From the NCBI GenBank assembly GCA_963807575.1, contig CAWECD010000020.1, forward strand, positions 135,037 to 199,036: a stretch of DNA of 64,000 bases, in the 5' to 3' direction. Shown piece after piece: positions 12,238 to 44,871 of the stretch (position 1 is its first letter; the number at the start of each line of letters is the position of its first letter). The stretch is from an uncultured Acidimicrobiaceae bacterium. Lineage in GTDB: Bacteria; Actinomycetota; Acidimicrobiia; Acidimicrobiales; Bog-793. Position numbers and translations under genes: made by a program. The notes beneath the pieces are model-generated. The model was not told where the DNA came from, made no database searches, and saw nothing but the letters and a program-made list of their open reading frames with translations.

Positions 12238-12738
12238 ATGGAAGAGCTGAGCCGTGGCCCATCCCGGGTCGCCGAGGAGCTCCTCCGTCTCGGCGTCACA
12301 AGCGCCGTGAAGGAGATGCCCGAGAGCACCAGGACAGCGGTAGAGGCTGCAGCCGCCTTGGGCTGTGATGTCGCCCAGATCGTGAAGTCACTGATCTTCC
12401 GCTCCGTCGCTGCCGACGAGGCGCTGCTGGTCCTGGTGTCGGGTGCAGACCGCGTTGACGAGCCTCGCCTGGCGCAGGTCGTCGGTGAGCAGGTGGAGAA
12501 GGCCACCGGCAATTTTGTGCGGGCCCGCACCGGGTACGCCATCGGAGGCGTCCCACCCGTGGGGCACAGCCAGCCTCTCGTCACCTATCTCGACGAGCAC
12601 CTGCTCGATCACGCCCTCGTGTGGGCCGCAGCCGGCACGCCGAGGGCTGTCTTTCCGATCAAGCCCGCCGATCTCCTCCGAATCACGTCGGCCAAGGTCG
12701 TGGCTGTCGCGGCTGCACAAGTGCCCGCCGCGTATTGA
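12238..12738 (+). CDS. YbaK/EbsC-family aminoacyl-tRNA deacylase domain protein
   Basis: 166-aa ORF with IVKSLIF...LVLVSG...GYAIGGVPPVGH, the YbaK/ProX-type editing-domain pattern. Confidence 0.78.
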   Translation: MEELSRGPSRVAEELLRLGVTSAVKEMPESTRTAVEAAAALGCDVAQIVKSLIFRSVAADEALLVLVSGADRVDEPRLAQVVGEQVEKATGNFVRARTGYAIGGVPPVGHSQPLVTYLDEHLLDHALVWAAAGTPRAVFPIKPADLLRITSAKVVAVAAAQVPAAY

Positions 12739-12817
12739 GCGCGCCCGGGTGCAGCCGGCGAGCGGGTGAGGGTCACGTCGGGTCGTCAATCAGGTTGGAG
12801 CCGGCGGGGACGAGTTT

Positions 12818-26998: not shown

Positions 26999-27321
26999 TA
27001 CCGTATGGCGCATAGAGTACTGGCTGTCTGCTGCCACTTCAACAACCTCAGAGGTTCCAGTCCAGACGACCTGACCGAGGATCGTGAGTGCCCGCTCACG
27101 TACGGGGGTCGGGCCCCACAGATCGGCCGATTATTCGTTCGGCACTACGCGACCGCGATCTCCACTATGCGCGCACCGAACAACCACTTCGGCGCTCAAC
27201 GGCACAGGTTGTGAGCTTGGCGATGCGCTTCAATCAGACTGGATCGCGCACACCGAGCCGGTGCTTCTTGTATGCACCTGCAAGTTCCCGCTTGCCGGTA
27301 TTGGCCAGGGCCGGGGCATCG

Positions 27322-30012: not shown

Positions 30013-30962
<950 letters not shown>

Positions 30963-30966
<4 letters not shown>

Positions 30967-31697
30967 GTGCGGGCACGCACGTGCGCTACGAGCTCCTCCG
31001 GACCGTGCGCAGTCGCCTGACGTGGGCGCTCTCATTGGCGCTTCCGCTCGTCGTCTACTACGCGGTCGCTTCGGGCCAGCGTCACGTATTCGTCTACGCC
31101 GCGGGCGTCTCCTTTCCTCTCTTCTTCATGACAGGGATGGCGGCCTATGGCGCGATGTTCGCCGCCATCGGACCCGGTGCCCGTCTCGCGCGCGACCGCG
31201 CCCGGGGCTGGACCCGCCAGTTGCGGATTACGCCACTTCGGGTCCGCACCGACTACCTCGCGAAAACGCTCGCCGCCTACCTCGTGGCGCTGCCCGCGCT
31301 CGTCTTGGTCTTCCTGGCCGGCGCAACACTCGGGGTCCGCCTCAACGTGGCGCAGTGGTTGGAGATGAGCGGCCTGCTTCTTGTTGGCTTGGTGCCGTTC
31401 GTCTTGATGGGCCTCATCTTGGGTCACCTGATCGCGACGGATGCCCTCGTGCCAGTCATGGGCTGGCTCGTCGTCTTCTTCGCCCTCTTTGGCGGCGCGT
31501 TTGGGAGCTTGTTCAACAGCGGGGCGATGCTGACCGTCGTCAAGGGGCTGCCCTCCTACTGGCTCGTGCATGCAGGCGCGGCCGCGCTCCTCCGCGGAGA
31601 CTGGCCTGCGGAGGGATGGATCGTGCTCGCCTGCTGGACCGCCGCGCTCATCCCACTCGCCGTCCTCGCCTACCGGCACGACGCCGGCGGCGTCTAA
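30963..31697 (+). CDS. ABC-2 type transporter permease
   Basis: ATG 30963 (MSAGTHVRYELLRTVRS) overlaps the ATPase stop (ATGA). 244-aa multi-TM protein. Confidence 0.8.
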
Positions 31698-31719
31698 TCG
31701 CTTCGAACCAATACGCTTA

Positions 31720-32892
31720 GTGGACGTGGATAGCGTGGAACGACCAGCGACTCCACGGGGGATGGCGTGGCCAGCTGACGATCGGGGTTGGACGACGGGA
31801 TGGCGCGGCCGTGTCCTTCCGGTGGTCTTCCTTGCGTACTTGATCTACGTCGCCCAAGCCGTCGCTCAGAACTCTCCCCGCCACACGGTCGGAGGCTATC
31901 TCGTCCTCGGAGTCTTCGTCTCTTCCTACATTGCCATTCTCTTCCAAGACTCCGGTCCAATCTGGCTACCGTCCCGGTCCATTTGGCGGTTCTGGGCTCC
32001 TTACGTTCTGCTCGTCGCCGCGTTCATTGCCGAGGTGCCCTTCGCCCGCGCTCCCGCGTTCATCATGTGCCTGTACATCACGATGATCGGCGTGGCGCGC
32101 TTCGGCGTCCGAGCCGTGCCCGCGACGGTGGCGATGGCGATGGCATCGCTCGTCGTGCCCGTCGCGATTCCCTCTTGGCATGACAGCCTCGCCAAGGCCT
32201 TCGACAACGTCGCCCCGCTCGCCATCCCCGTCGTCGGCATCGTTACCTACGCCGTCGTGCAGATCCGCGAAAAGAACATCGCCCTCGCCGAGGCCCGCGC
32301 AGAGATCGGTCGGCTGGCAGCTGACAACGAGCGCTCGCGCATCGCCCGCGACCTGCACGACCTGCTTGGACACTCCCTCACGACGGTCACGCTAAAAGCG
32401 GGACTCGCACATCGCCTGAGCGCTACTGATCCTACGCGGGCTGCTCAGGAGATCGGTGCCGTCGAGGAGCTCTCGCGCCAGGCCCTCGCGGAGGTGCGTG
32501 CGGCGGTGTCGAGCTACCGAGACGTCAGCCTCGCGAGCGAGCTCGCCCAAGGCAGGGAGCTGCTCCGGGCCTCAGGAGTGGCCGCGGACCTCCCGAGCGC
32601 GACCGATGTCGTCGATGTCGCCCATCAGGAGCTGTTCGGGTGGGTCGTGCGCGAAGGTCTCACCAACGTCGCCCGCCATGCTCACGCGACACGATGCTCG
32701 GTGACCTTGTCCGCGTCGGAGATCGAGATTCGCGATGACGGGATTGGCACATCGACTGCCGACGGGAACGGCCTCTCGGGTCTCCGCGAGCGCGCCGCCG
32801 CGGCCGGTGGCACCGTCGAAGCTGGTCCACTGCGCCCACGCGGTTGGCGACTACGTGTGGTGATCGACTCTGCGGTCCCCACTGCACCGTGA
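31720..32892 (+). CDS. Sensor histidine kinase (HisKA_3 / NarL-partner type)
   Basis: H-box ERSRIARDLHDLLGHSLT, an N-terminal multi-TM region and a C-terminal ATPase region (GLTNVARHA...DDGIG...GNGLSGLRER). Start is GTG 31720 or ATG 31762. Confidence 0.85.
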   Translation: MDVDSVERPATPRGMAWPADDRGWTTGWRGRVLPVVFLAYLIYVAQAVAQNSPRHTVGGYLVLGVFVSSYIAILFQDSGPIWLPSRSIWRFWAPYVLLVAAFIAEVPFARAPAFIMCLYITMIGVARFGVRAVPATVAMAMASLVVPVAIPSWHDSLAKAFDNVAPLAIPVVGIVTYAVVQIREKNIALAEARAEIGRLAADNERSRIARDLHDLLGHSLTTVTLKAGLAHRLSATDPTRAAQEIGAVEELSRQALAEVRAAVSSYRDVSLASELAQGRELLRASGVAADLPSATDVVDVAHQELFGWVVREGLTNVARHAHATRCSVTLSASEIEIRDDGIGTSTADGNGLSGLRERAAAAGGTVEAGPLRPRGWRLRVVIDSAVPTAP

Positions 32893-33497
32893 CGATCCGC
32901 CTCCTCCTCGCCGACGACCAGGAGCTGGTGCGAGGAGCGCTGTGCGCGCTGCTCGAGCTGCAACCGGACTTCGAGATCGTCGCGTCTGTCGGTCGGGGAG
33001 ACGAGGTCGTCGATGCCGCCATGGCCAATCACCCTGACGTTGCGCTGCTCGATATCGAGATGCCTGGTGTCGACGGTCTCGCGGCCGCCGGAGCACTCGC
33101 TGCCCAGTTGCCCGAGTGCCGTGTCGTCATGCTCACGACGTTCGGCCGCGCGGGCTACCTACGCCGAGCGATGGAGGCTGGCGCAGTCGGTTTCGTCGTC
33201 AAAGACGCTCCTCCTGAAGTCCTGGCACAGGCCATACGTCGTGTGATGACGGGAGATAGCGTCGTCGACCCAACCCTTGCAGCCATCGCGCTCGCCGCGG
33301 GCGACTCCCCGCTAACGGCCCGTGAGCGAGACGTGCTTGCTGTGGCGCGCTCGGGAGCAACTGTGGCCGAGATCGCCTCCAAGCTCTTTCTCTCCGAGGG
33401 GACGGTTCGCAACTACCTCTCAACCGCGATCGCGAAAACCTCAGCGCGAAATCGGCTGGATGCGCTCCGCATCGCCGACGAGAGGGGTTGGCTCTAG
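32889..33497 (+). CDS. NarL/LuxR-family response regulator
   Basis: GTGA overlap with the kinase stop. Receiver domain (LLLADDQELVR...DVALLDIEMPGVDG) plus a LuxR HTH (LTARERDVLAVARSGATVAEIASKLFLSEGTVRNYL). Confidence 0.9.
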   Translation: MTIRLLLADDQELVRGALCALLELQPDFEIVASVGRGDEVVDAAMANHPDVALLDIEMPGVDGLAAAGALAAQLPECRVVMLTTFGRAGYLRRAMEAGAVGFVVKDAPPEVLAQAIRRVMTGDSVVDPTLAAIALAAGDSPLTARERDVLAVARSGATVAEIASKLFLSEGTVRNYLSTAIAKTSARNRLDALRIADERGWL

Positions 33498-33670
33498 ACA
33501 AGCGACCACCTGCAACGGTGGCTCGTCCAATGGGTTCGCCTCTGCGCCGCCTGCCTGTCGATCTCTGGGAACAGATGCCCATACCGGTCATGAGTGAACG
33601 CCACTGAGCTGTGTCCGGCACGTCGCGAGATCTCGAACGGATCGACTCCCGCGATGACTACGTCCTGAGC
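33497..33670 (-). pseudogene. C-terminal remnant of a tyrosine recombinase/phage integrase
   Basis: The ORF fragment encodes ...AGVDPFEISRRAGHSSVAFTHDRYGHLFPEIDRQAA. This is the terminal LGHSS...T.D.YGHLFP block containing the catalytic Tyr. There is no upstream catalytic or N-terminal domain. Confidence 0.6.
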
Positions 33671-33779
33671 TGTCCTTTCTGTCGTGCCGGGAGGCGGACA
33701 GATCCCGGCGTGCCTTGTACGTGCGTAATTCGGGGCGGCGAGGGTGGCGACTGCCACGTCGAGACCCGTTCGCCGCGGT

Positions 33780-34838
33780 TCATGCCGCCCGACGGCGCAC
33801 GAGCCAGACGGTCACGGCGCCAAGCAGTACTGACAGCGCCAGTAGCCAGCCACCTTCGATCCACTGGAAGGACCAGAAACGGCTGACCGGTTGGTAGTTG
33901 GCCCACAGTGTGTAGCCGTGCTGGAGGAGGCACTGCGTAGGGGTCAGGGAGCCGAAACCGTTGACGCCGCCGCGCCCAGTTGCAACGAAAGATGCAGGGC
34001 AGAGCTGCGGGAGTAGACCAAGAGGCGGTCGGCTGCCGAACACGACCCTGCCGGCCTTCGTCCACCACTCACTGATGACCCAAGCCGAGCCAGGTATGTT
34101 CAGATTTCTCGCCACGAGCGGCGTCATGTAGTGCTGGCGCAGGACATTCGCCGTCAGGAGAGCGAGTGCGGTATAGACGGCGAGGGTGGCGACGATCGCG
34201 GGCACGATCCGGCGGACGAGCATGCCGGCGAGGACGCCGATCGCGAAGGCGGCGAGCGTCCACGCGGCGAACGCGACCGGGCGGAGATCGAACAGCCCGG
34301 CAGAGAGCAGGCTCGCCCCGGAAACGTTGGGGGCGTTCTGCGCGGCGACGTAGGGCTGGTAGTACCAGGACAACAACACGCCGAAGGCTCCGGCGAGGGC
34401 GGCCACTGCGACGCCGAGCGCCACCAGCTTGGCGACCGCCCAGCGGCACCGGCCGAAGGCCTGCGTCCAGGCATAGCGGAAGGTTCCGGTCTCAAACTCA
34501 CGGGCCAGCACCACTGACCCGACGAACGCCCCGATCAGCGCAGCCACCGGCTGTAGGACGAAGCCACCTTTCAGAAAGGAGTTCGTGCCGTCAAAGATGG
34601 CGGCCAGGTTGGTGCAGTTCGCCGAACCCACTGGACGGCAGGCGACCGCAGCGGCGTACTCGTGGTGCACCGAAAGGCCGGTTATCCACAGCCACACCGC
34701 CAGTGCTCCGAGGAAAGCCACCACGCCGGCCAGTGCGACCCGATGATGCCGCCAGATAACCCAGCCCATTCGGCGCCAAGGCACGGGTCGCAGACGGGCG
34801 TCCTGCTCAAGACGGGCGGGCAAGGCGAGCGTGGTCAT
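33780..34838 (-). CDS. ABC transporter permease-like integral membrane protein (GntR-ABC module)
   Basis: 352-aa multi-TM ORF. Its ATGA overlap with the upstream ATPase stop (34835-34838) implies that it is the membrane partner. Confidence 0.7.
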   Translation of the reverse strand: MTTLALPARLEQDARLRPVPWRRMGWVIWRHHRVALAGVVAFLGALAVWLWITGLSVHHEYAAAVACRPVGSANCTNLAAIFDGTNSFLKGGFVLQPVAALIGAFVGSVVLAREFETGTFRYAWTQAFGRCRWAVAKLVALGVAVAALAGAFGVLLSWYYQPYVAAQNAPNVSGASLLSAGLFDLRPVAFAAWTLAAFAIGVLAGMLVRRIVPAIVATLAVYTALALLTANVLRQHYMTPLVARNLNIPGSAWVISEWWTKAGRVVFGSRPPLGLLPQLCPASFVATGRGGVNGFGSLTPTQCLLQHGYTLWANYQPVSRFWSFQWIEGGWLLALSVLLGAVTVWLVRRRAA

Positions 34839-35752
34839 TTCGCCAACTCCGATCGATCGCTGCCTCCGCCGCGGCTCGGCCCAGGCAACGCCGCGGCACC
34901 AGGCTCACGCAGATAGGCAATGGTCAGTTCCTCCAGAGTGATGGGCCGTGCCTCCCATCCGGCTGGTACCGGATCAGAGGTACCGTCGCAACGGACGCGA
35001 AAGTGCACCCGCGACGTATCGTGGCTGGCGTGCACGACGTTCCACTTGTCCGCATACCGCTCTGACTCCGAGACAGGGCCGGCGAGGACACGGTGGTGTG
35101 CAAGGAGATCGTCGACTTCCCCGACCACCTGGACGCGACCGCGCGAAAGAAGCACGAGGTAGTCGCAGACTCGCTCGAGTTCCGCGAGGATGTGGGAGGA
35201 CAACACGACCGAGACGCCGTCGTCCGCGACCGCGGCCATCACCGTCGCCATGAAGTCGATCCGGGCCAGCGGATCGAGCGAGGCCATCGGCTCGTCGAGC
35301 ACGAGGAGCTGCGGCCTTCGCGCGAGCGCCAGAGTCAACGCGAGCTGGGCCTGCTGGCCGCCTGACATCTCCCCCGCCTTCTGCCGAAGCGGGATTCCGA
35401 GCTCGTCGAGGCGCCGCTCGGCGTAGCCCTGGTCGAAGCGGCGGTTCAAGTTGCGCGTCTCGTGGATAAGGTCGGCTGCCGACAAGTTCTTGTAGAGGGG
35501 CGTGTTCTGTGCGACGAACGCGATCCCATCGAGGGCGGAGGGAGAACCGGCGGCGCGACCGCCGAGTACCGTCACCTCACCGCTCGTCGGCACTGCGAGA
35601 CCGACCGCGAGATTCAAGAGCGTCGTCTTTCCGGCACCGTTCGGCCCGACCAGCGCGACGACGTGCCCCTCAGGGATCGCCAACGTGCAATCGTCCAGTG
35701 CCCTTGTCTGGCCGTATGACTTGGCGAGAGCGTGCGTCTCGATGACGTTCAT
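34835..35752 (-). CDS. ABC transporter ATP-binding protein
   Basis: Walker A GPNGAGKTT, signature MSGGQQAQL, Walker B LLVLDEPM. ATGA overlap with the GntR gene stop. Confidence 0.9.
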   Translation of the reverse strand: MNVIETHALAKSYGQTRALDDCTLAIPEGHVVALVGPNGAGKTTLLNLAVGLAVPTSGEVTVLGGRAAGSPSALDGIAFVAQNTPLYKNLSAADLIHETRNLNRRFDQGYAERRLDELGIPLRQKAGEMSGGQQAQLALTLALARRPQLLVLDEPMASLDPLARIDFMATVMAAVADDGVSVVLSSHILAELERVCDYLVLLSRGRVQVVGEVDDLLAHHRVLAGPVSESERYADKWNVVHASHDTSRVHFRVRCDGTSDPVPAGWEARPITLEELTIAYLREPGAAALPGPSRGGGSDRSELAK

Positions 35753-36240
35753 GCCACGCCCTCCGCTCCGCGCCGTGCCGCGCCACGCTCGCGGGCAGCA
35801 CCCCCGCTGGGCTCAGGAAAATCCCGCATCACGTTTGCCATGAGCGCCGCGATCCCGTCCTCGTCGAGCCCGGCCGCGTCGGCGGCCGTCACCCATGAGA
35901 CGAGCGAGCGCCGAAGCTCGGTGAGCACCGGAAGTGCCACCTGGTTGAGCGTCGCCTCGATGAAGGTTCCCTGGCCGGGTCGTCCGATGGCGAGGCCCTT
36001 CATTTCGAGCTCTCGGTACGCCTTCATCACCGTGTTCGGATTGATCGCCAACTGCGCGACTACGTCGCGGACCTTCGGAAGCTGATCGCCGGGCGACAGG
36101 TAGCCGAGTCGCAGCGCATGTTCGACCTGCTGGACGACCTGCATGAACGTCGGAACGCCCGAAGCGAGATCGAGGTGGAACTCGATTGACGGGACTCGCC
36201 GCTGAGTCGCCGCCTCATCCTCGTCCTTATCGTCTGTCAT
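35749..36240 (-). CDS. GntR-family (YtrA-like) transcriptional regulator
   Basis: LSPGDQLPKVRDVVAQLAINPNTVMKAYRELEMKGLAIGRPGQGTFI is a GntR winged HTH. The short effector domain and downstream ABC genes fit the YtrA subfamily. Confidence 0.85.
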   Translation of the reverse strand: MTDDKDEDEAATQRRVPSIEFHLDLASGVPTFMQVVQQVEHALRLGYLSPGDQLPKVRDVVAQLAINPNTVMKAYRELEMKGLAIGRPGQGTFIEATLNQVALPVLTELRRSLVSWVTAADAAGLDEDGIAALMANVMRDFPEPSGGAARERGAARRGAEGVA

Positions 36241-36246
36241 AGCACA

Positions 36247-36274
36247 ACGATACAGCGACGGGCGGCTCTGTCAA
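36247..36274 (-). promoter_or_regulatory. Sigma-70-like promoter giving a probable leaderless gntR transcript
   Basis: On the minus strand: TTGACA (36274-36269), a 16-nt spacer, TATCGT (36252-36247), then only 6 nt to the ATG at 36240. Confidence 0.4.
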
Positions 36275-36633
36275 CGGCGGCCCAGCAATCAACCGCAACT
36301 CACCGTGGTCAGGTTGCCCATTACCCGAAGGCCGACGCTTACAGAACGGTAGGCCAGGCTCAGATAGCTCAATCGGCGTCCCGAAGGTGAACGACCGACG
36401 GTCGCGCTGCTCGGCATCACCGTTGCGCCCGATCGACTGTTCAACCTGCCGAGTCTGGCGCGGCGTTCGCGTCACTCGACGCTGGCGCAAGAGCGTCGAT
36501 CTGTCACGGTGGACCTGCCAAGACGGGCCACGTGCAGGGTGACGTTCTTTTCACCACCGCCGCCGACCGATGCTTCAGCGGTGCTCGGAAACCGTGGCGA
36601 TCATCCTCTGTCCTGGCAGCGAGATCGGCAGAA

Positions 36634-37521
36634 CTATCCTGTCGCTGCCGTCAGCCAGGCAAGAGACTCGACGAGGTCGGCATCAGGATTACCCATGTGT
36701 CCGAGCGCGTTCAATCTGACGACTGCACCAGGGACGGTCCGAGCAATCCACTCCCCATGAGCCGGAGGAACGAGGACATCCGAGGTCCCATACCAAACCT
36801 GAGTCGGCACGGTGATGGCCGCCGGGTCGAAACCCCAGGGCCGGACAAAGGCAATGTCGTCATCGACCCAGCCCCAGACTCCGTTGCGGGTCTGCTCGCC
36901 TATCGACTCCCGGAGGACTTGGGCGAAGTCTTCCCGGGCGAGAACCTCCTTGTCCGACGGCGGCAAGTCGAACTGTCCAAGGATCGCCGATGGGTTGACG
37001 GACGCTATCTCACGAAGCTTCTCGCTCTCATGCTCGAGCTCTCTGGCAAGCCGGGCTTCGCCCTCCAGCGCCCAACCGAACTCCTTCACGTTCTCGGGGT
37101 CCATGCCAGCAAACCAGTCGTCTCCCAAAGCTTCATAAGGAGCCACCCCGACGGTGCATATCACCCTGGTCACCCGATCGCCAAGGAGGGCAGCGACAGC
37201 CAGCGCATGGGGTCCTCCCCCTGAACCGCCCGTGACAGCGAAGCGGTCGAGGCCGAGGGCGTCGGCGATAGCGACCACGTCTCCCACGCAGTCCGCCACT
37301 GCCCGCCCACCATGGCGATCCGAGCCTCCGTAGCCGGCGCGGTCATAAGTGATGACGCGAGCTCCAGTCGAGCGCACGAGATCTTCGTTGGGATGACGGT
37401 CGAGCCGGCATCCGGGTGTGCCGTGGAGTGCGAAGACCGGCTTGCCGTCGAGGTCGCCCCACTCGGCGAACATGACGGTCCGGCCGTCGCCTGCCCTTGT
37501 GACCTGCGCAGTTCGGTCCAT
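36634..37521 (-). CDS. Alpha/beta-fold hydrolase
   Basis: 295 aa with HGTPGCRL (oxyanion region) and the nucleophile elbow VTGGSGGGPHAL. Confidence 0.85.
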   Translation of the reverse strand: MDRTAQVTRAGDGRTVMFAEWGDLDGKPVFALHGTPGCRLDRHPNEDLVRSTGARVITYDRAGYGGSDRHGGRAVADCVGDVVAIADALGLDRFAVTGGSGGGPHALAVAALLGDRVTRVICTVGVAPYEALGDDWFAGMDPENVKEFGWALEGEARLARELEHESEKLREIASVNPSAILGQFDLPPSDKEVLAREDFAQVLRESIGEQTRNGVWGWVDDDIAFVRPWGFDPAAITVPTQVWYGTSDVLVPPAHGEWIARTVPGAVVRLNALGHMGNPDADLVESLAWLTAATG

Positions 37522-37571
37522 ACGGGAAACCTAACGCATCCGCAGGGCCGGTAGCTCAGCCTCGCTCGACG

Positions 37572-37680
37572 GTCGGAGATCCGCGACGTCGGCCCGCCGA
37601 CGCGAACTTCCACCTCATTGTCACGACGGTGAGCGACCCTTCGCCAACCACGGCAGAACCGACCTAACGTCTCATCTGCG
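37572..37680 (+). repeat. Direct repeat R1 (109 nt), paired with 44153-44261
   Basis: Ungapped hand alignment with R2 gives 85/109 identical positions. Exact blocks are GTCGGAGATCCGCG, ACGGCAGAA and AACGTCTCATCTG. Confidence 0.7.
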
Positions 37681-37823
37681 CGGTCGCCGAACGGTCTTGG
37701 CGGAGGCAGCGGCCCTCCAGATCGACGGTTATCACAAGCCCTGGGTCTGGAATCCCTTGTAAAGACTCGGTTTTGCAGCGTAGACATGTCACCGCCGGGA
37801 GCATGCGGAGCGGTTCGTCGATG

Positions 37824-38219
37824 TCATCGTGGTCCGCCCGGCCGCTGGCGGAGAGGCTGCACGCGTTGAGCTCCGAGATGACGAGCGAGCTGGTCGCGCA
37901 GCGCGTCGTTCTCGGCGCGAAGACGGGAGATCTCGTCTCGGGCGGTGTCGAGGCGTTGGCGTAGCGAGTCGGTGCTCGCCCGCAGAGCAGCGCGCGCAGT
38001 CGTCCTCGTCGGCAGCGCTCGCAGCTGGGTGACGAGCTCGCGGATCTCTGGCTCGCGATAGAGCCAGGCCCTTGAGACGCCGGCTGCGTTGGCGACAGCC
38101 TCGAAGTTGACGGACCGTCCCTCGCGGCTGAGGCGCTCGATCGCCTCGTGCGCTGCCGCGAGTGCCGCATCGTGGCGCCGGGCGTTGGCCTTGGCGAGGA
38201 AATGAGCGTTGTCAGGCAC
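37824..38219 (-). CDS. Small HTH + coiled-coil protein in the TnpC position (DUF6262-like from memory)
   Basis: I take GTG 38219 as the start (GTGCCTGA overlap with the upstream stop), giving 131 aa. Contains SVNFEAVANAAGVSRAWLYREPEIRELVTQLR, then a coiled coil LRQRLDTARDEISRLRAENDALRDQL. Confidence 0.6.
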   Translation of the reverse strand: MPDNAHFLAKANARRHDAALAAAHEAIERLSREGRSVNFEAVANAAGVSRAWLYREPEIRELVTQLRALPTRTTARAALRASTDSLRQRLDTARDEISRLRAENDALRDQLARHLGAQRVQPLRQRPGGPR

Positions 38220-39720
38220 GGCCGTTTTCGCCTTCGGTGTCGTCGGCGATCCTCTCCAAGGCGGGGATGATCCGTTCCAGGTTGGTCTGGACATGTCGCA
38301 GGTTCTCGGACAGTCGAACCTGGCCCTTGGCGTCGGCTTGGGCGATAAGGCGGCGGTTGGTGACGGCCTGATGGCGGTGGATCTCCAAGAACTCGGGCGT
38401 GGTCTGGAAGTCCGGGCAGGTGAGGCAGGCGTTGGGATGTGGGCAGTCCTGCTGGGCGGGGCGGCCGCAGTAGCCGTTGGGGAGGCTGTCGCGGACCCGG
38501 TTCAAGTTGTGCTTCATCCACTCGGCCGAAGCGGTGGGGCCGTCGGGGTCGTAGCCGATCTGTTCGCCGGCGATGTCGACGCGCTTTTGCTGGTAGCTGT
38601 CGAAGGCCTCACGGATCGTGGTGTCGTGGACCTTGGCGTAGTGACCCGTCATGTTCGGCGAGGCGTGGCCGAGGAGCCTCTGCACGACGTGCTGGGGGAC
38701 CCCTTGGTTGATGAGCCGGGTCCCGAGGGTGTGGCGGAACTGGTGGCCGGTCACCCGCACGGGCTGGCCGGCTTGGTCGTGCAGTCCGATGACCTCGCAC
38801 CAGCGGACGAGCTGGCGAGTGAAGTTGGAATGCGAGTAGGCCTTCGAGCCGTCGTCGTTGTCGGCAATCCCCGGAAACAGCCACGGGCTTCCAGCGGGCC
38901 AGTGGCTTTTGACATAGTCCTGCTGGGCGGAGATGGCCGCCGCCGCCCTGGCCGAGAGTGGGACGAGCTGCTCCGAGCGGACCTTGGAAGCCATAAAGCG
39001 TAGGCACGGCCAGCCGCTGCTGTCCTCGACGACGGGGTTGAAGATGAGGTTGCAGGCGTCCCCGCCGCGCAGCCCGGTCTCCATCATCACGATCACCAGG
39101 TGCCGGGTGGTCGGGTAGCGGATCTTGGCCAGAGCCTCGTCGGACTCGAGCTGGGCCATGACGAACTCGGGGATGAAGCGGGCGATCTCGTCGTGGTGGA
39201 AAGGGAGCTCTTCGACGTAGATGGTCGCGCCGGGCACGAGGCCGGGAAGCCACCCGTGGCGGTGGCAGGCGTCGAAGAAGACCCGGATCATCGAGCAGGA
39301 CAGGGCCCGTGTCGCTGGTGAGTAGCCCTGCAAGAGCAGCCATGCCAGGTAGTCCTCGAGCACCGGCCGGGTGATGCCGGCGGGATCGGAGACCTCAGGG
39401 TGGCACTCGGTGAGACAGCGCGAGAAGCGCGATAGAGCCAGGGCTCCCGCGCTGACGGTCTGAAAGGCGCACCCGGTGGCGAGGCGGAACCGGGACCAGC
39501 GCTTGGCCGGGTCACGCAGCCAGTCCTGGGTGATCGTGTCGAAGCGGGCCCGGCCGCGCCCGCGGCGGGTGGGGATGCCGAGGCGGGCCGCGTCCCAGTG
39601 GTCGTCTGCCCAGTTCCCGTCGAGTGTGGTGTCCCTCGACGCTACGAGCGAGAGTTGCAGCGCCTCCGCTCTCGCTGCCGCTGAGGCAGGGCTCACCTGC
39701 TCGCCTCCTCCCGCTCCCAC
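38212..39720 (-). CDS. Tyrosine recombinase, large (TnpB-like)
   Basis: HQFRHTLGT and LLGHASPNMTGHYAKV (H-x-x-R and H...Y catalytic blocks), followed by a Cys-rich tail YCGRPAQQDCPHPNACLTCPDF. The alternative start GTG 39696 makes a GTGA overlap with the upstream stop. Confidence 0.85.
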   Translation of the reverse strand: MGAGGGEQVSPASAAARAEALQLSLVASRDTTLDGNWADDHWDAARLGIPTRRGRGRARFDTITQDWLRDPAKRWSRFRLATGCAFQTVSAGALALSRFSRCLTECHPEVSDPAGITRPVLEDYLAWLLLQGYSPATRALSCSMIRVFFDACHRHGWLPGLVPGATIYVEELPFHHDEIARFIPEFVMAQLESDEALAKIRYPTTRHLVIVMMETGLRGGDACNLIFNPVVEDSSGWPCLRFMASKVRSEQLVPLSARAAAAISAQQDYVKSHWPAGSPWLFPGIADNDDGSKAYSHSNFTRQLVRWCEVIGLHDQAGQPVRVTGHQFRHTLGTRLINQGVPQHVVQRLLGHASPNMTGHYAKVHDTTIREAFDSYQQKRVDIAGEQIGYDPDGPTASAEWMKHNLNRVRDSLPNGYCGRPAQQDCPHPNACLTCPDFQTTPEFLEIHRHQAVTNRRLIAQADAKGQVRLSENLRHVQTNLERIIPALERIADDTEGENGRA

Positions 39721-40799
39721 ACCCCCGCCCGCAGCAGCGCCTCGCGGATGTCGGCCGCCTCGAGATGTACGTAAGTCTGGCTGGTGGTCGTAGAGGAGCG
39801 ATGCGTGAGGAGACGGGCGACCACCTCGATCGGCACGCCTTGGCGGATCATGTCGGTGGCGTGTGAGTGACGAAGCACATGCGCGGTGAAGGGGATCCCG
39901 GTCACCGCCGCGATGCGGACGATCAGCTGCTGGACCGTCGGGTAGCTCATCGGTTCGCCGATTCTGCCGGCGAAGAGGTTCACGAACACGTAGTCCGAGT
40001 CGATCGCGCCGTACTCGGCGTGCATGTACTCCGAATAGAGGCGCACGAGCGGAGTGGAGACGGGCAGCACTGCCGACGAGCGCATCTTGGCTCGTGCCCC
40101 GTTCGCGTTGTCGGGGCGAGGAATGATGTGCACTTCGCGCCGGCGTGAGACGAAGTCGCTATGGCGCAGCCCGAGTGCCTGGCCGATGCGCATGCCGGTC
40201 TCGGCGAGCAGCGACAGCAAGAACCTGTCGCGCAGGTGCTCGCAGGCGGCGAGGATTGCGACGATTTGCTCGGTCTGCAAGGTGCGCGGTGCCCGCCGCT
40301 CGACGTGCAGCTTCACGGGCCTGGTCGGGATGGGACGGCCCTTGGTCACGTGGTGCAGGAACGGCTTGTAAGAGCCACGGCTCGTGCGCCGCCATGCCAC
40401 GAGCTCGGCCGCCACCTCGAGCCCGGCGCGGGCGTGGTGGTCGTAGAAGCCGAACACGCCCGCCAGGTAGCGGTTCACCGTCGCCGGGTGGCGCACGCCG
40501 CTCCCGTCGGCGAGCACCACCACGTTGTCGGCCGGCGCCCGCAGCCAAGCGACGAAGCGGGCGACGTCCTCGATCCCGACGGCCTCCCAGTTCTTCCCGG
40601 TCCGTGCCAGGAACTCGAACCACAGCTTCAGGCTGACGGCGTAGGCGCGCACAGTGTTCGGCGAGCGCTCGAGCGCCGCTAGGTAGGCGAGGTAACGCTC
40701 CGCAGGCTCGACCACCTCTCCTTCCTCGGTGACAAGCGTGAAGGACTCTGCGCCCGTGACCGGCATCAGCACCTTCTGAACGAGCACGCTCCCTCCCAT
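39693..40799 (-). CDS. Tyrosine recombinase, small (TnpA-like)
   Basis: SAM-like N-domain (LERSPNTVRAYAVSLKLWFEFL) and catalytic blocks HVLRHSHAT and LLTHRSSTTTSQTYVH. Start is ATG 40799 or 40766; the track start at 40910 is probably over-extended. Confidence 0.85.
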   Translation of the reverse strand: MGGSVLVQKVLMPVTGAESFTLVTEEGEVVEPAERYLAYLAALERSPNTVRAYAVSLKLWFEFLARTGKNWEAVGIEDVARFVAWLRAPADNVVVLADGSGVRHPATVNRYLAGVFGFYDHHARAGLEVAAELVAWRRTSRGSYKPFLHHVTKGRPIPTRPVKLHVERRAPRTLQTEQIVAILAACEHLRDRFLLSLLAETGMRIGQALGLRHSDFVSRRREVHIIPRPDNANGARAKMRSSAVLPVSTPLVRLYSEYMHAEYGAIDSDYVFVNLFAGRIGEPMSYPTVQQLIVRIAAVTGIPFTAHVLRHSHATDMIRQGVPIEVVARLLTHRSSTTTSQTYVHLEAADIREALLRAGVWEREEASR

Positions 40800-40826
40800 C
40801 GGAGAAGCCGGATGTCGCAACCCTCT

Positions 40827-40849
40827 CCTTGAATGTATGACATTCAAGG
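40827..40849. promoter_or_regulatory. Perfect 10-bp inverted repeat in the divergent promoter region of the recombinase element
   Basis: CCTTGAATGT-atg-ACATTCAAGG lies between the recombinase operon start (40799) and the divergent 113-aa gene start (40890). Confidence 0.5.
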
Positions 40850-40889
40850 CATCGAGCGGCGGATCGCCGGCGGCGGGTAACAACAGGGC

Positions 40890-41231
40890 ATGCCGTCGGT
40901 CGAACAGCAAGCCAAGCGCCGCCAGCGCCAGATCGTTGCCGAGATCGCCAAGCTCGGACTATGCCCGCCTGGGAGCCTGGTGACACGGATGACACGCTGC
41001 GGCACGCCCACATGCCGTTGCTCGAGTGATCCGGCGCAGCGCCACGGGCCCTACCCGACGTGGATCCGCAAGGTCGGCACGAAGACCGTCACGCGCACAC
41101 TCAGCCCATCCCAGCTCGAGCGTTACCAACCCCTGTTCGAGAACACCAAGCGTCTCCGGGAGTTGATCGGCGAGCTCGAAGCGATCGCGGCGGAGGTCGT
41201 CGAGAACACCGACGAATGGAGTCGCCGATGA
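40890..41231 (+). CDS. Small Cys-rich protein divergent from the recombinases (DUF6788-like from memory)
   Basis: 113 aa with the RCGTPTCRC motif, followed by HGPYPTWIRKVGTKTVTRTL and a helical tail. ATG start. Confidence 0.6.
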   Translation: MPSVEQQAKRRQRQIVAEIAKLGLCPPGSLVTRMTRCGTPTCRCSSDPAQRHGPYPTWIRKVGTKTVTRTLSPSQLERYQPLFENTKRLRELIGELEAIAAEVVENTDEWSRR

Positions 41232-41433
41232 TCCCCGGCGTGCTTATCAACTACGAATGAGACACCGCTTTTGATAACGCGTCGCCGCCGAAGCCCGATA
41301 CCCCTCGTCAGTTACAGAGAAGACGGGTCAAGTCCCGCTTGTGATAACGACGGCTCCGGGTCGGCGCACAACTCCACGAGCCCAAGGGCGCGACAGAATG
41401 TGCAGATGGCGGCGCCAAGCGGTGCTTGCGCAC

Positions 41434-42270
41434 TCAACTGGGGGAGAAGACCTCGATCTCTGCCGCGCCCGTGTTTCCGCCGGTCGACTGGACGACCTCG
41501 AAGCGAAGGAAGCGGCCCGTGAACGACACCGGCACTCTGTGCGGGTCGAGGCGGTTGCCGGCGGGGAAAGGCCCGTACCGTTTGCGACCGTCGACAACTA
41601 CGGCAAAGGTTCGAGTGATCGCCGAACCGTCCGACATCTCACGTGTGACAAAGGAGATGCCTGTGATCTTGTGTTGTCGTCCGAGGTCGATCTCGACGAA
41701 GGCCCGATCACCGTCGTCGGCTGAGGCCCACTCAGTCGAGAGGTTGCCGTCGACCGCGTTCGCCGCCCGGTAGGCGTTGCTCCACTGCGAGCTGACGGCG
41801 ACGATCTTCGCGCCGATGGCGATGTCTTGTCCCGGGGCAGCGCTCTGGCGCGGCGTCGTGAAGGTGGTCAGCTCTCGGGTCTGAAAGACGCGACCTTGCG
41901 CGTCGGTGGCAGTGAGCAGGAAGCGGTAGGTCGTGCCCGGAGTCAGGCCGCCGAGAAGGACGGTGTGCTGGGAGATCGCGGTGCCGCCCATGTTGGGATC
42001 GTCTGCGATCGATCCCAAGGCTGCCGTCCTGCCGTAGGCGATCGCGCACACAGTCGGCGGGTTGGTCTCGACCTGCACGACCGCCGATCTGCCGTCGGCG
42101 GCGATCTGCAGGTGAATCTTCCCGACTTCGACCAGGCGGAAGTCACGGACGCTCGTCGTGTTCTTGGTCATGCCGGTGCCACCGCACGCAGTCAGACCGA
42201 GACACAGCGCAGCGAGCGCGGCTAAAGCGCGGGCGGTTGGTTGCCTCACGGCGCGCTGCTCTGTCGCCAT
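41434..42270 (-). CDS. Lipoprotein with FN3-like and discoidin (F5/8 type C)-like domains
   Basis: ATG 42270 (MATEQRAV...). Signal peptide with lipobox LGLTAC. GGLTPGTTYRF is FN3-like. AANAVDGNLSTEWAS...ITGISF...EIEVF is the discoidin-domain pattern. Confidence 0.72.
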   Translation of the reverse strand: MATEQRAVRQPTARALAALAALCLGLTACGGTGMTKNTTSVRDFRLVEVGKIHLQIAADGRSAVVQVETNPPTVCAIAYGRTAALGSIADDPNMGGTAISQHTVLLGGLTPGTTYRFLLTATDAQGRVFQTRELTTFTTPRQSAAPGQDIAIGAKIVAVSSQWSNAYRAANAVDGNLSTEWASADDGDRAFVEIDLGRQHKITGISFVTREMSDGSAITRTFAVVVDGRKRYGPFPAGNRLDPHRVPVSFTGRFLRFEVVQSTGGNTGAAEIEVFSPS

Positions 42271-43013
42271 GCCGTATCCGGGACCAGAACCACCTTCCTG
42301 CCTGCTCATGGGTTGCGGGACCGCCGGGTTGGACCGTGCCCTCCCATCCGCCAACAAGACGCTCCGAGCGGCGAGCACCGAGCGGAAGAAGGTGTCGCGG
42401 TGAGAGCTTTGTGTGCGCGAGGACGCGTATTCTCCGGCATTGGCGCGATCCTAGGGACAAGCACGGAGGCCTAGGCGTCGTCTCGCGGATGGGCCCCAGG
42501 CATGAGCCACCGATACCAGGTTCCAGGGCACGTCGCTGCCCCCTTCGCGATCCTTGCGAATACCGGGCCATTTCGAGAAGCAGGCACTATCAGGCAGTCT
42601 GGTCGAGCACGAGACCCCAAGAGCGATGCCGCGACATGGCCACGTCCACGGTGCCCTCAGACCGCCCACCGTCACGCGTGGGAGCACGCAATCGCATTTC
42701 GAGTGGAAAGCGGACCAAGGGGACAACCCCGTCGCACAAAACGCCGTAGGGGCCATTCGGAGGGCCCCTGCTCACACCACATTTACGAAACCCGAGTCCG
42801 TTAAACGATCGAGCGTCATGCGAGGAAGCTGCCGCTCCAAACATGTCGCTCATGAGGTGCGCGACTACTGTGTGCCGCACCGGCGAAGCCGGCCGTCGCT
42901 CGTGATCTTCAGAAGCGCTCGGGCGGGAGGACCAGATAGCGGCGACCTCTCTTGCAGACACGAGCGCTACATCTCGCTTCGACAGGTCTCGATTACTTGG
43001 GGGACTAGCGGAC

Positions 43014-44000
43014 TTGAACCCCTACATCGTGCTCGGAAGTGTCATCGTGGGCTTCCTGGTCGGCATGACCGGCGCGGGAGGCGGCGCCCTTATGACGCCG
43101 ATGTTGATCCTGCTGTTCTCGGTCAAGCCATCGACGGCCATCTCGAGCGACCTCGTCGCCGCCGTCGTGATGCGCCCCTTCGGAGCTGCGGTGCACCTCC
43201 ACAAAGGAACGGTCAATCTCCGTCTTGTCGGGTGGATGGTCTTGGGCTCGGTTCCGATGGCGTTTCTCGGCGCCTACCTCCTGCACCTGATGGGCCAATC
43301 TCATGTCGCCCAGGACAACGTGGAGCGGGCGCTCGGGGCAGCCCTTTTGATCGGCGCCGCCGCCATGACGCTGCGCTACGTCCTCGACCGCCGCGGTGGC
43401 CACCACCGCAGCGGCGCCGTCCGCGAGATCGTCGTCCGTCCGGTCCCCACAGTCGCGATCGGGATGCTGGGCGGGGTCATCGTCGGGATCACCTCTGTCG
43501 GCTCGGGGTCGTTGATCATCGTCCTGTTGCTTTTCGCCTATCCCCTCCTCGGAGCCAACCAGCTCGTCGGCACCGACCTCACCCAGGCCGTTCCGCTGAC
43601 CGGTGCGGCGGCACTCGGCGCGTTGGCATTCGGGCATGTGGAGTTCTCGGTAACGACCTCCATCATCGTCGGCAGCGTTCCCGCCGTGCTCGTCGGGTCC
43701 TTTCTCTCTTCGAGGGCGCCCGACCGGATCGTGCGCCCGGTCATCACCTTCGTCATCTTCGCCTCCGGCCTCAAATACGTCGGGGTGAGCACGACGACGC
43801 TCGGCTGGGTCCTGTGCGTGACGGTTCTCCTCCTCGCGGTCGTCTGGACGGCGCACACGCGGCCGTGGAGAAACCAGATCAAGCCGTCAACGGTGGAAGT
43901 GGCCGCTGGCGGCGCTTCGTCTCAAGACCCTGCTCTGGCTCCAGTAGATGAGCGACCACCTTCCTCCCCAAGGGGGGACGAACACCCGCTTGTTGAGTAG
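43014..44000 (+). CDS. TauE/SafE-family sulfite/anion exporter
   Basis: GFLVGMTGAGGGALMTPMLILLF near the N-terminus and a second GSGSLIIVLLLF repeat, giving the two-fold TauE/SafE topology. TTG start. Has a C-terminal extension of about 60 aa. Confidence 0.82.
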   Translation: MNPYIVLGSVIVGFLVGMTGAGGGALMTPMLILLFSVKPSTAISSDLVAAVVMRPFGAAVHLHKGTVNLRLVGWMVLGSVPMAFLGAYLLHLMGQSHVAQDNVERALGAALLIGAAAMTLRYVLDRRGGHHRSGAVREIVVRPVPTVAIGMLGGVIVGITSVGSGSLIIVLLLFAYPLLGANQLVGTDLTQAVPLTGAAALGALAFGHVEFSVTTSIIVGSVPAVLVGSFLSSRAPDRIVRPVITFVIFASGLKYVGVSTTTLGWVLCVTVLLLAVVWTAHTRPWRNQIKPSTVEVAAGGASSQDPALAPVDERPPSSPRGDEHPLVE

Positions 44001-44152
44001 TTGAGGCTGGCCGACACAACCGCCGGGAGGGAGTTCGGCTGCGACCAGCAGCGCAATCTCGTGGACTCCTGTCGCGAGAACCGGTTAACGGTTGGCAATG
44101 CGCTGTCGAATCCGCGTCTACTACCCATCACGCCGACGGGGACCCATCGCCA

Positions 44153-44261
44153 GTCGGAGATCCGCGTCGTCGCCCCTCCGACACGAACCCCCACCTCACT
44201 CTCGCTACGGCGGGCGACGCTCTACTGATTACGGCAGAAAGGACCGAACGTCTCATCTGTG
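44153..44261 (+). repeat. Direct repeat R2 (109 nt), paired with 37572-37680
   Basis: See R1. Lies between the convergent TauE (+) and MarR (-) genes. Confidence 0.7.
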
Positions 44262-44400
44262 GGCGTCGAGAACGACCATCACCAAGCTGTACATGAATAC
44301 CGATCAGACGGATCCGGAGCGTGCACGAGATCGCCGAATATCTGCGGCTCCGTCCAGGCTTCGAAGGCCCAGCAGCGCGTTGTTATGGCGCGCTGTCGCG

Positions 44401-44871
44401 TCAGGCCGACTTGTGGATCTTCGACGCCAAGCGGGCCTGCCGGACGTCGGCAAGTTCACTGCCTCGCTCGAAGTAGGCGATCAAGACCCGAAGGTCGCGC
44501 TCGCTGAACTGAGCCTGAAACTCAGCCATGAGCGACTCGGGAATCTCGTAGAGCTCCCCGCCGAGCCGACGGAGTTTCGGCGTGAGGTCGACGATGACTC
44601 GACGGCGATCAGCTGGGTCACAGGCGCGACTCACGTAACCCGCGTTCTCGAGCCGGTCCACGACCTTGGTGATCGCACCGGTCGTCAAACGGCTCAGCTC
44701 AGACAGCCGCCCGGCCGTCATCGGTCCGAACTGCTCGAGGACGTCGAGACAGTGCGCCTCGGCTCGCGAGACACCGAGGTAGTCCGCGACCGCCTGATCG
44801 AACCTGTCGTTTTCGCGTTGGGACTGCCGGACCATCTCGAACAGCCGACCGAAGAGCGCCACACGATCCAT
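44401..44871 (-). CDS. MarR-family transcriptional regulator
   Basis: ATG 44871. Winged HTH LDVLEQFGPMTAGRLSELSRLTTGAITKVVDRLENAGYVSRACDPADRRRVIV. Confidence 0.85.
   Translation of the reverse strand: MDRVALFGRLFEMVRQSQRENDRFDQAVADYLGVSRAEAHCLDVLEQFGPMTAGRLSELSRLTTGAITKVVDRLENAGYVSRACDPADRRRVIVDLTPKLRRLGGELYEIPESLMAEFQAQFSERDLRVLIAYFERGSELADVRQARLASKIHKSA

Follow-up and report, generated by a model that had tools for sequence, protein, structure and literature searches.

A dispersed intergenic repeat of Acidimicrobiales whose right end is a common insertion point for three types of mobile element

Intergenic repeats of the repetitive extragenic palindrome (REP) and bacterial interspersed mosaic element (BIME) type are insertion targets for insertion sequences (IS) (Tobes & Pareja 2006, PMC1525189), and repeats of Pseudomonas putida are targeted by the IS110-family elements ISPpu9 and ISPpu10 (PMC12288879, bioRxiv 10.64898/2026.03.19.712850). 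Here we describe a repeat, termed R, of which two copies, R1 and R2, bracket a 6.6-kb segment in a 64,000-nucleotide stretch of an uncultured Acidimicrobiaceae genome (hereafter “the window”; GenBank assembly GCA_963807575.1, contig CAWECD010000020.1, positions 135,037 to 199,036 of the forward strand). Like REP/BIME repeats, R is multi-copy, intergenic, and hit at one fixed position, including by an IS110-family element, with rearrangements occurring at the repeats; unlike them, it is ~170-180 nt long and not detectably palindromic, belongs to an uncultured actinobacterial lineage, and has a core used by three unrelated element classes. Another point of comparison is the REP13E12 repeat of Mycobacterium tuberculosis, which Bibb and Hatfull are said to have identified in 2002 as the attB site of the prophage-like phiRv1. 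R is likewise an actinobacterial dispersed repeat that contains an attachment site, and elements can occupy alternative copies of it. REP13E12 is, however, ~1.4 kb long and partly coding, and phiRv1 uses a serine integrase, whereas R is a non-coding unit of 170 nt and the elements found at R use tyrosine or DEDD recombinases. The association between REP13E12 and phiRv1 is also mentioned elsewhere (PMC1931498).

R1 and R2 are, in our assessment, probably independent members of a dispersed non-coding repeat family that carries an integration core at its right end, and the 6.6-kb segment between them is probably a composite. A 3.6-kb Tn554/SE-like transposon would have integrated into R1 at the sequence CGACGG, and R2 would be an unoccupied copy. 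Comparison loci in other genomes and metagenomes are labelled L followed by a number. The portions of R in the window are as follows.

37566 to 37728, plus strand: R1, a full-length dispersed repeat of the R1/L004 subtype, located with the nhmmer profile and ending with the core CAGATCGACGG
44147 to 44328, plus strand: R2, the second copy, of the B subtype, located with the nhmmer profile
41354 to 41375, plus strand: putative resumption of the R1 unit past the transposon (CTCCGGGTCGGCGCAC...), from a short similarity

An earlier note on this DNA had reported imperfect direct repeats at 37572-37680 and 44153-44261, identical at 85 of 109 positions, and a gapless MAFFT alignment recovered the same 85 columns together with the three exact blocks it had named (GTCGGAGATCCGCG, ACGGCAGAA and AACGTCTCATCTG). 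A repeat search extended the pair to 113 nt at 78% identity with a spacing of 6581, making it the sole long direct repeat of the region, and blastn gave a similarity of E=3e-21. When the 109-mer of R1 was slid over the plus strand of the whole window, it gave a mean of 29.5 matches (sd 4.7) and a runner-up position of 50, so that 85 of 109 lies far above chance. The true unit exceeds 109 nt in both copies: a family profile (nhmmer) matched 37566-37733 (E=4e-45) and 44147-44319 (E=3e-39), and no other place in the window at E<=1. R2 contains a diverged internal stretch (44262-44300) and retains the right end CCGATCAGACGG with a short extension, ATCCGGAGCGTGCACGA. For R1, joining the two flanks of the transposon (37728 to 41354) would rebuild GATCGACGG/CTCCGGG, which resembles the uninterrupted copies at L008 and L013 (GATCGACGGCTCGG), judging from a short similarity. 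A possible third copy, placed by the earlier note at 27115-27166, was recovered by none of blastn, nhmmer and Smith-Waterman, and its deletion-tolerant score of 20, against a window background of 18.4±3.0 with a maximum of 34.6, is that of a chance match. The core was not enriched in the window, with 4 occurrences of CAGATCGACGG at <=1 mismatch compared with 3.35 expected and no enrichment outside R.

R is non-coding. The absence of codon periodicity noted earlier was confirmed in the R1/R2 pair, whose mismatches fall 10/7/7 across the codon positions, and extended to 17 family members, whose variable columns fall 30/27/29; frame-breaking indels of 1 nt and 4 nt also separate family members, which together rules out a small open reading frame within R. 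Several short internal repeats were seen by eye in the R units (37566-37728 and 44147-44261), namely ACGG-N5-G(G)GGACC present twice ~40 nt apart, GTCGG present twice 18 nt apart, and an inverted pair GGGCGAC/GTCGCCC 43 nt apart, all of which could be protein-binding sites.

We also considered that R might be a multi-copy small-RNA gene or a cis-regulatory RNA leader, with elements integrating at its 3' end as they do at transfer RNA (tRNA) and transfer-messenger RNA (tmRNA) genes. The long invariant blocks, the ~170-nt size and integration at one end only would all be in keeping with such a gene, as would one stem position that changes from A.C to A-U or G-C among copies and a single G-C to C-G swap in a small hairpin. 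Rfam, however, returned nothing at the gathering score over the whole window (the best match on R1 at E<=10 was a meaningless microRNA), and ARAGORN found no tRNA or tmRNA, so that no known RNA family is a credible assignment. The RNAalifold covariation term amounted to only -0.23 kcal/mol, with double changes in 4 of 32 pairs, and the consensus folding energy was no better than that of column-shuffled alignments (z=-0.78 and +0.69 for the two strands). Since the copies are similar to each other and were gathered with an exact pattern, these tests have low power, and it is within that limit that no signal of conserved structure was seen on either strand. Hairpins in R are short only (4-7 bp), a scan of 37300-44600 revealed no promoter-like or terminator-like site at R1 or R2, and the orientation of R relative to neighbouring genes is inconsistent. 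Taken together, these results make an RNA gene an unlikely identity for R. R resembles the tRNA/tmRNA sites of genomic islands in being conserved and non-coding, with integrase-bearing DNA at one defined end, and differs from them in being multi-copy, in having no RNA signature and in being neither a tRNA nor a tmRNA according to ARAGORN.

To collect further copies, one genome per species was scanned with a pattern made of the two terminal blocks of R, and metagenomes were scanned with a single conserved block. The genome scan yielded three loci, all in metagenome-assembled genomes (MAGs) of Acidimicrobiales/Acidimicrobiaceae and two of them on separate contigs of one MAG, while the metagenome scan yielded 32 loci, 30 of which align across the whole unit. 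The family profile matched R copies at E=1e-29 to 1e-57, and the habitat of the family comprises Acidimicrobiales MAGs and peat/bog metagenomes. From the alignment, the unit is ~170 nt (~170-180) long, with a sharp left limit (CCAGTCGGAGATCC) and a right end at CCATCCAGATCGACGG, beyond which the flanks diverge; subfamilies vary in the extent of the unit on both sides. All copies are intergenic, in either orientation relative to the adjoining genes. Clustering 1.5-kb flanks separately for each side gave at least 17 distinct left-flank contexts, and a recombinase is adjacent to R in a minority of them. This is the outcome that the earlier note had named as counting against an attachment-site reading, i.e. 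many dispersed copies unlinked to recombinases. No RAYT-type (Y1 HUH) transposase was found among the annotated genes neighbouring R in the loci covered. The R family has not been described before, yet it fits a known category, that of dispersed intergenic repeats.

R1 and R2 belong to different subfamilies and do not stem from one recent duplication, because each is ~96% identical to copies in other genomes (R1 at 95.75% to L004 over 36531-37730; R2 at 95-96% to L014, L018 and L024 over 112-114 nt) and only 78% identical to the other. Direct pairs of R 1.7-6.6 kb apart occur in the window, in L004+L005 (one MAG) and in L003/L034, with unrelated content between the copies, and there are at most 2 to 3 copies per locus.

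Three types of mobile element were found at the 11-nt core CAGATCGACGG that forms the right end of R, namely a Tn554-like transposon, an IS110-family element and an integrase module. At the orthologous site downstream of a PEMT gene, L073 reads ...CGCGCCCGGAA/CCGTCG/TTATCACAAGC, where the last sequence is the end of a Tn554-like transposon, and L069-L075 carry an IS110-family element of ~1.36 kb that is inserted <=2 nt from the transposon insertion point and abuts R (...CCAGATCGAC/IS). In L024/L032 and L016, a module of ~250 nt, which we call Y, and an integrase gene of 320-348 codons begin directly past the R end; in L014 the integrase gene lies at the R end in reverse orientation, and in L027 an ISAzo13 transposase comes after Y. 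Overall, a mobile element sits exactly at the core in 6 of ~19 R contexts.

The IS110-family (DEDD) element of L069, which occupies 12470-13826 of that locus, has a 316-nt non-coding leader that contains CAGATCGAC. The leader also contains CCCACAGATCGACCGAC, a 9-nt identity to the left flank of the target. RNA-guided targeting is known for the IS110 family (PMC11208160, PMC11187229), and the match suggests that this leader may hold the target loop of a bridge or seek RNA programmed for R.

Synteny also breaks at the edges of R. A single RCC1-gene left flank, 95-98% identical among loci, is joined to 6 right flanks that all begin just past GATCGACGG, and in the window the marR-flank homology with the L073, L069 and L077 groups (95%, 95% and 89%) stops at 44329-44333, the outer edge of R2, which coincides with the 3' flank of marR. 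Beyond the R extension, the DNA starts with GATCGCCGA(N)TA in several independent contexts (R2 from 44329, L017, L038 and L004), and the marR flank of L073, which has no R, carries GATCGCCCAATA at the corresponding place. This recurrence could mean that R itself prefers a particular target sequence.

The element at R1 is a self-contained transposon, with the following parts.

37729 to 41347, minus strand: Tn554/SE-like tyrosine-recombinase transposon of 3,619 bp in the right end of R1, delimited by copies elsewhere
37729 to 37739, plus strand: terminal inverted repeat TTATCACAAGC, tnpC-side end, from the motif count
41337 to 41347, minus strand: terminal inverted repeat TTATCACAAGC, DUF6788-side end, from the motif count
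41267 to 41277: subterminal inverted-repeat copy TTATCAAAAGC, 60 nt inside the DUF6788-side end
37723 to 37728, plus strand: CGACGG, left flank of the transposon and last 6 nt of the R1 core
41348 to 41353, plus strand: CGACGG, right flank of the transposon
37824 to 38294, minus strand: gene for a small DUF6262 protein in the TnpC/Srap position (Pfam PF19776, E=1e-13)
38212 to 39720, minus strand: large tyrosine recombinase, TnpB-like (Pfam Phage_integrase, E=2e-21)
39693 to 40910, minus strand: ordinary tyrosine recombinase, TnpA-like (Pfam Phage_integrase, E=4e-32, and a SAM-like N-terminal domain)
40890 to 41231, plus strand: DUF6788 gene, divergent from the recombinase genes, with a homologue annotated PF20586 in relatives

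The limits of this transposon are defined by copies in other contexts, at L038 (95.5%), L073 (96.9%) and L039-L041 (75-77%), whose homology to the window is confined to 37715/37721-41369. Its terminal inverted repeats are perfect over 11 bp, and the TTATCACAAGC motif occurs 3 times in the window compared with 0.16 expected, in all three cases inside the transposon. The subterminal copy, which is kept in L038 and L062-L066, is probably a second recombinase-binding site. The junction with R1 reads ...CCTCCAGATCGACGG/TTATCACAAGC, and the flanking CGACGG is either a crossover or footprint sequence or a target duplication; elsewhere, the flanking hexamers are CGACGG on both sides in L038 and CCGCCG on both sides in L062-L064, L066 and L041. 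The circular junction of the transposon would be expected to read GCTTGTGATAA-CGACGG-TTATCACAAGC. Each junction read conforms to CCGYCG, followed by ATCTG in 3 of 7 contexts; the R core is a perfect match to this short target, CCGYCG(ATCTG), and accounts for two of the transposon contexts. An arrangement of the RIT type, in which a second, inverted R would stand on the far side of the recombinase genes, was rejected, there being no inverted R at 40850-41460 and the transposon having inverted repeats of its own.

Gene order is conserved in L038-L067, and the DUF6788 homologue is annotated as PF20586 in L038, L040-L050 and L062-L067. Relatives of 492-494 and 362-364 amino acids (aa) indicate that the large and the ordinary recombinase probably start near 39696 and 40787, respectively. 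In NCBIfam, the recombinases gave only sub-threshold Xer and Gmt matches. Homologues of the large recombinase number 1572 (best 95%), the majority of them on contigs of 3.5-5 kb, which fits a repeated element because assemblies break in this way at repeats.

The Tn554/SE/GInt class of tyrosine-recombinase transposons has been summarised (PMC10214605), with Staphylococcus and Enterococcus as the only hosts named there for Tn554 relatives. By gene order, Pfam domains and ends, the anatomy of the recombinase module appears to match this class: one ordinary (~364 aa) and one large (~494 aa) tyrosine recombinase are followed by a small third protein downstream, likened to TnpC/Srap by gene position, and short terminal inverted repeats, a 6-bp junction sequence and a target preference are present as well. 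Unlike described members, the window transposon has an extra divergent DUF6788 gene, inverted repeats of 11 bp only, and an actinobacterial host.

In L038 (read as reverse complement), an R-like copy at 13033-13143 ends at profile position 114 (…AACGTCCCATCT), beyond which lie a left end of Tn554-like type that has diverged and remnants of tnpA. The divergence of R2 from the family starts at ~44262, close to the same profile position.

The genes and other features between and around the two copies are listed below; the gene content between R1 and R2 is as first described, according to Pfam.

36634 to 37521, minus strand: alpha/beta hydrolase gene (Pfam)
41434 to 42378, minus strand: F5/8-type-C (discoidin) lipoprotein gene (Pfam)
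42525 to 42810, plus strand: non-coding relic of the Y module in the “gene-free gap”, from homology to L024, L016 and L027
43014 to 44000, plus strand: TauE gene (Pfam)
44401 to 44871/44958, minus strand: marR gene (Pfam MarR)

In the earlier note, the first reading of the pair was that R1 and R2 are the attL and attR ends of a single integrated 6.6-kb element. In this view, a circular element with an R copy of its own would have entered, by site-specific recombination, an R that stood in the chromosome between the hydrolase gene and marR. Repeats in direct orientation with a spacing of 6581 bp that bracket recombinase genes adjoining R1 would be expected from such an event, and a crossover at the right-end core would indeed yield two whole, non-identical R copies. 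In addition, a related MAG seems to have the same two subtypes bracketing a variable segment, in the order hydrolase-R-X-[IS]-RCC1-R (pieced together from L004 and L005). The recombinases, however, sit in the 3,619-bp unit described above, which has its own inverted repeats and 6-bp flanks, does not end at both repeats, and stops 2.8 kb before R2. The same unit occurs in L038 and L073 (95-97% identity), where neither the discoidin nor the TauE gene accompanies it, the TauE gene of relatives is located elsewhere, and R is not confined to element junctions, its 17 or more contexts mostly having no recombinases. Along with the membership of R1 and R2 in different subfamilies, this makes the attL/attR interpretation very improbable.

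The empty marR-R-hydrolase site predicted by that interpretation was not present in relatives whose marR flanks are 89-95% identical, where marR has neither R nor the hydrolase gene beside it. In L073, L076 (95% nucleotide identity) and L069-L075, marR is instead followed, after 175 nt, by an ABC-transporter pair, and in L077-L080 by a small gene and then tig-clpP-clpX. The hydrolase-R relative, L004, runs on into a module, X, that lies upstream of the RCC1 gene; its R holds no element, but with other DNA (the X module) as its right flank this locus is not an allele and was rejected as an empty transposon site. What stands of the earlier comparison with islands at tRNA and tmRNA genes is that elements integrate preferentially at the right end of R, as islands do at a tRNA gene, which accounts for the recombinase element adjoining R1; a 6.6-kb element is not supported.

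In the window, the ABC-transporter pair (an ATPase and a membrane gene) lies at 30016-31689. Because relatives have it beside marR, the window must hold ~12-14 kb of rearranged or accessory DNA (~31.7-44.3 kb). A single inversion of 30016-44329 was rejected as an explanation of the difference from L073, since in both the transposon faces the same way with respect to marR. Given that the transposon is self-contained and that flanks differ in relatives, the 6.6-kb interval is best seen as a composite, made up of the transposon and of a 2.8-kb mosaic with the discoidin gene, the Y relic and TauE, and not as one element.

Several observations on this interval may be added. The ATPase and membrane genes stand directly beside marR in L073, L076 and L069 (92-95% nucleotide identity). 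Between marR and the DUF6788-side transposon end lie ~2.9 kb both in the window (41354-44328) and in L073 (9543-12452); the transposon of L073, 96.9% identical, has the same orientation, and its DNA up to marR is unrelated to that of the window, with R2, TauE, the gap and the discoidin gene filling the interval in the window and the ABC pair and PEMT in L073.

The remaining DNA around R is similarly patchy. The hydrolase gene and R1 form a 1.2-kb block (36531-37730) that recurs in L004 with other DNA on either side; there, an IS256/Mutator-family transposase gene adjoins the block. Between the discoidin gene and TauE, the gap holds a degenerate right end of R ahead of the Y relic (42525-42810), whose homologues are the DNA that separates R from the integrase gene in L024 and L016 and the DNA ahead of the ISAzo13 transposase in L027. 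Several stretches of 20-30 nt are almost invariant in the Y module (~250 nt), which could be a promoter or the att region of the integrase module. Relatives of TauE (88% nucleotide identity) share with the window only 43011-44111, i.e. the gene and 111 nt downstream; in these loci the gene is preceded by a pyridoxal decarboxylase and a gene of 299 aa and followed by Fer4/CCG genes or by DUF2510, and no R was found beside it in the loci examined. With neighbours so different, the window TauE either sits in non-ancestral surroundings or represents a second copy.

These single-gene blocks invite another explanation, in which R is the recombination site of an integron-like cassette exchange in Acidimicrobiales, a 170-nt non-palindromic site at which tyrosine recombinases located at R would swap single-gene blocks bounded by R (and Y). 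Hydrolase+R1, X-RCC1+R and TauE+R2 are the candidate blocks. Such an exchange would fit four observations. Two genomes have entirely different DNA between copies of the same two R subtypes; a single left flank continues, precisely from the core, into 6 different right flanks; marR and the transposon lie ~2.9 kb apart in the window as in L073, although what separates them is unrelated; and the gap contains an R-end relic and Y. As with integron attC sites, variable single-gene blocks are separated by a recombination-prone repeat and an integrase gene adjoins some of the copies; unlike attC, R has no imperfect palindrome, forms no long arrays (<=2 to 3 copies per locus) and is accompanied by genes in mixed orientation, and no IntI-type integrase was identified near R. 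We hold cassette exchange to be improbable, though the recurrence of direct R pairs speaks for keeping it in view.

A last alternative is that R is a classical miniature inverted-repeat transposable element (MITE), that is a non-autonomous transposon derivative, mobilised by the enzyme of that transposon, with terminal inverted repeats and target-site duplications. R is short, non-coding and multi-copy, has sharp limits on both sides in many contexts, and its termini form a weak inverted pair, C(A/C)GTCG...CGACGG, seen by eye in the profile alignment. Yet this imperfect pair is convincing to no more than 6 nt, no duplication of flanking bases is recognisable, and no parent element with the ends of R was found, R showing no significant similarity to the Tn554-like ends or the IS110 leader, from which we accordingly reject a derivation. 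The variable extent of the unit among subfamilies also resembles modular repeats of the BIME/BOX type more. A classical MITE is an improbable identity for R. The second suggestion of the earlier note, a dispersed REP/MITE-like family, holds as regards dispersal over many unrelated contexts, but the copy at 27115-27166 was fortuitous, and neither REP-like hairpins nor clear terminal repeats or duplications emerged.

We thus favour a dispersed repeat with a right-end integration core. Being multi-copy and intergenic, R may act as a safe landing pad for mobile elements, and homologous recombination between elements, or between R copies, that occupy different R sites would, once the element is lost, shuffle the DNA to the right of R. 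As to how R itself spread, we would guess at non-autonomous DNA that recombinases move or copy in trans by way of its core-like termini, C(A/C)GTCG...CGACGG. Several points weigh against this account. The mode of spread can only be inferred, as there are no clear terminal inverted repeats, no target duplications and no pair of filled and empty sites, empty alleles (the same flanks without R) being absent among the loci fetched. With the core free of mobile elements in ~13 of 19 contexts, the landing-pad role rests on six. The transposon family also inserts outside R, as in L040, at the end of a peptidase gene, and in L038 the flank on the tnpC side does not resemble R (z=0.7). R may thus simply hold a good match to the short preferred target CCGYCG(ATCTG). 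The recurring direct pairs of R are unexplained by purely random dispersal. Finally, because the pattern used to collect copies was built on the most conserved block, the apparent conservation of R is inflated and divergent subfamilies were possibly missed. As regards L038, a seat of its transposon in an R copy was rejected on the basis of that tnpC-side flank; only the other flank has the short extension and X module in common with R flanks.

For annotation, the lesson is that a recombinase beside a direct repeat does not mark the boundary of an island until the element's own ends have been checked. The Tn554/SE-like family is abundant in environmental Actinobacteria and has barely been described beyond Firmicutes and Gammaproteobacteria, and the window transposon provides a natural case in which the ends and the 6-bp junction sequence are defined and the target is mapped, while the IS110 element at R offers a leader that carries the target sequence. 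For the genome itself, R explains the mosaic nature of this stretch of the window, in that at least three mechanistically different elements, a tyrosine-recombinase transposon, an RNA-guided IS110 element and an integrase module, are concentrated at a single 11-nt core, and it is there that synteny breaks.

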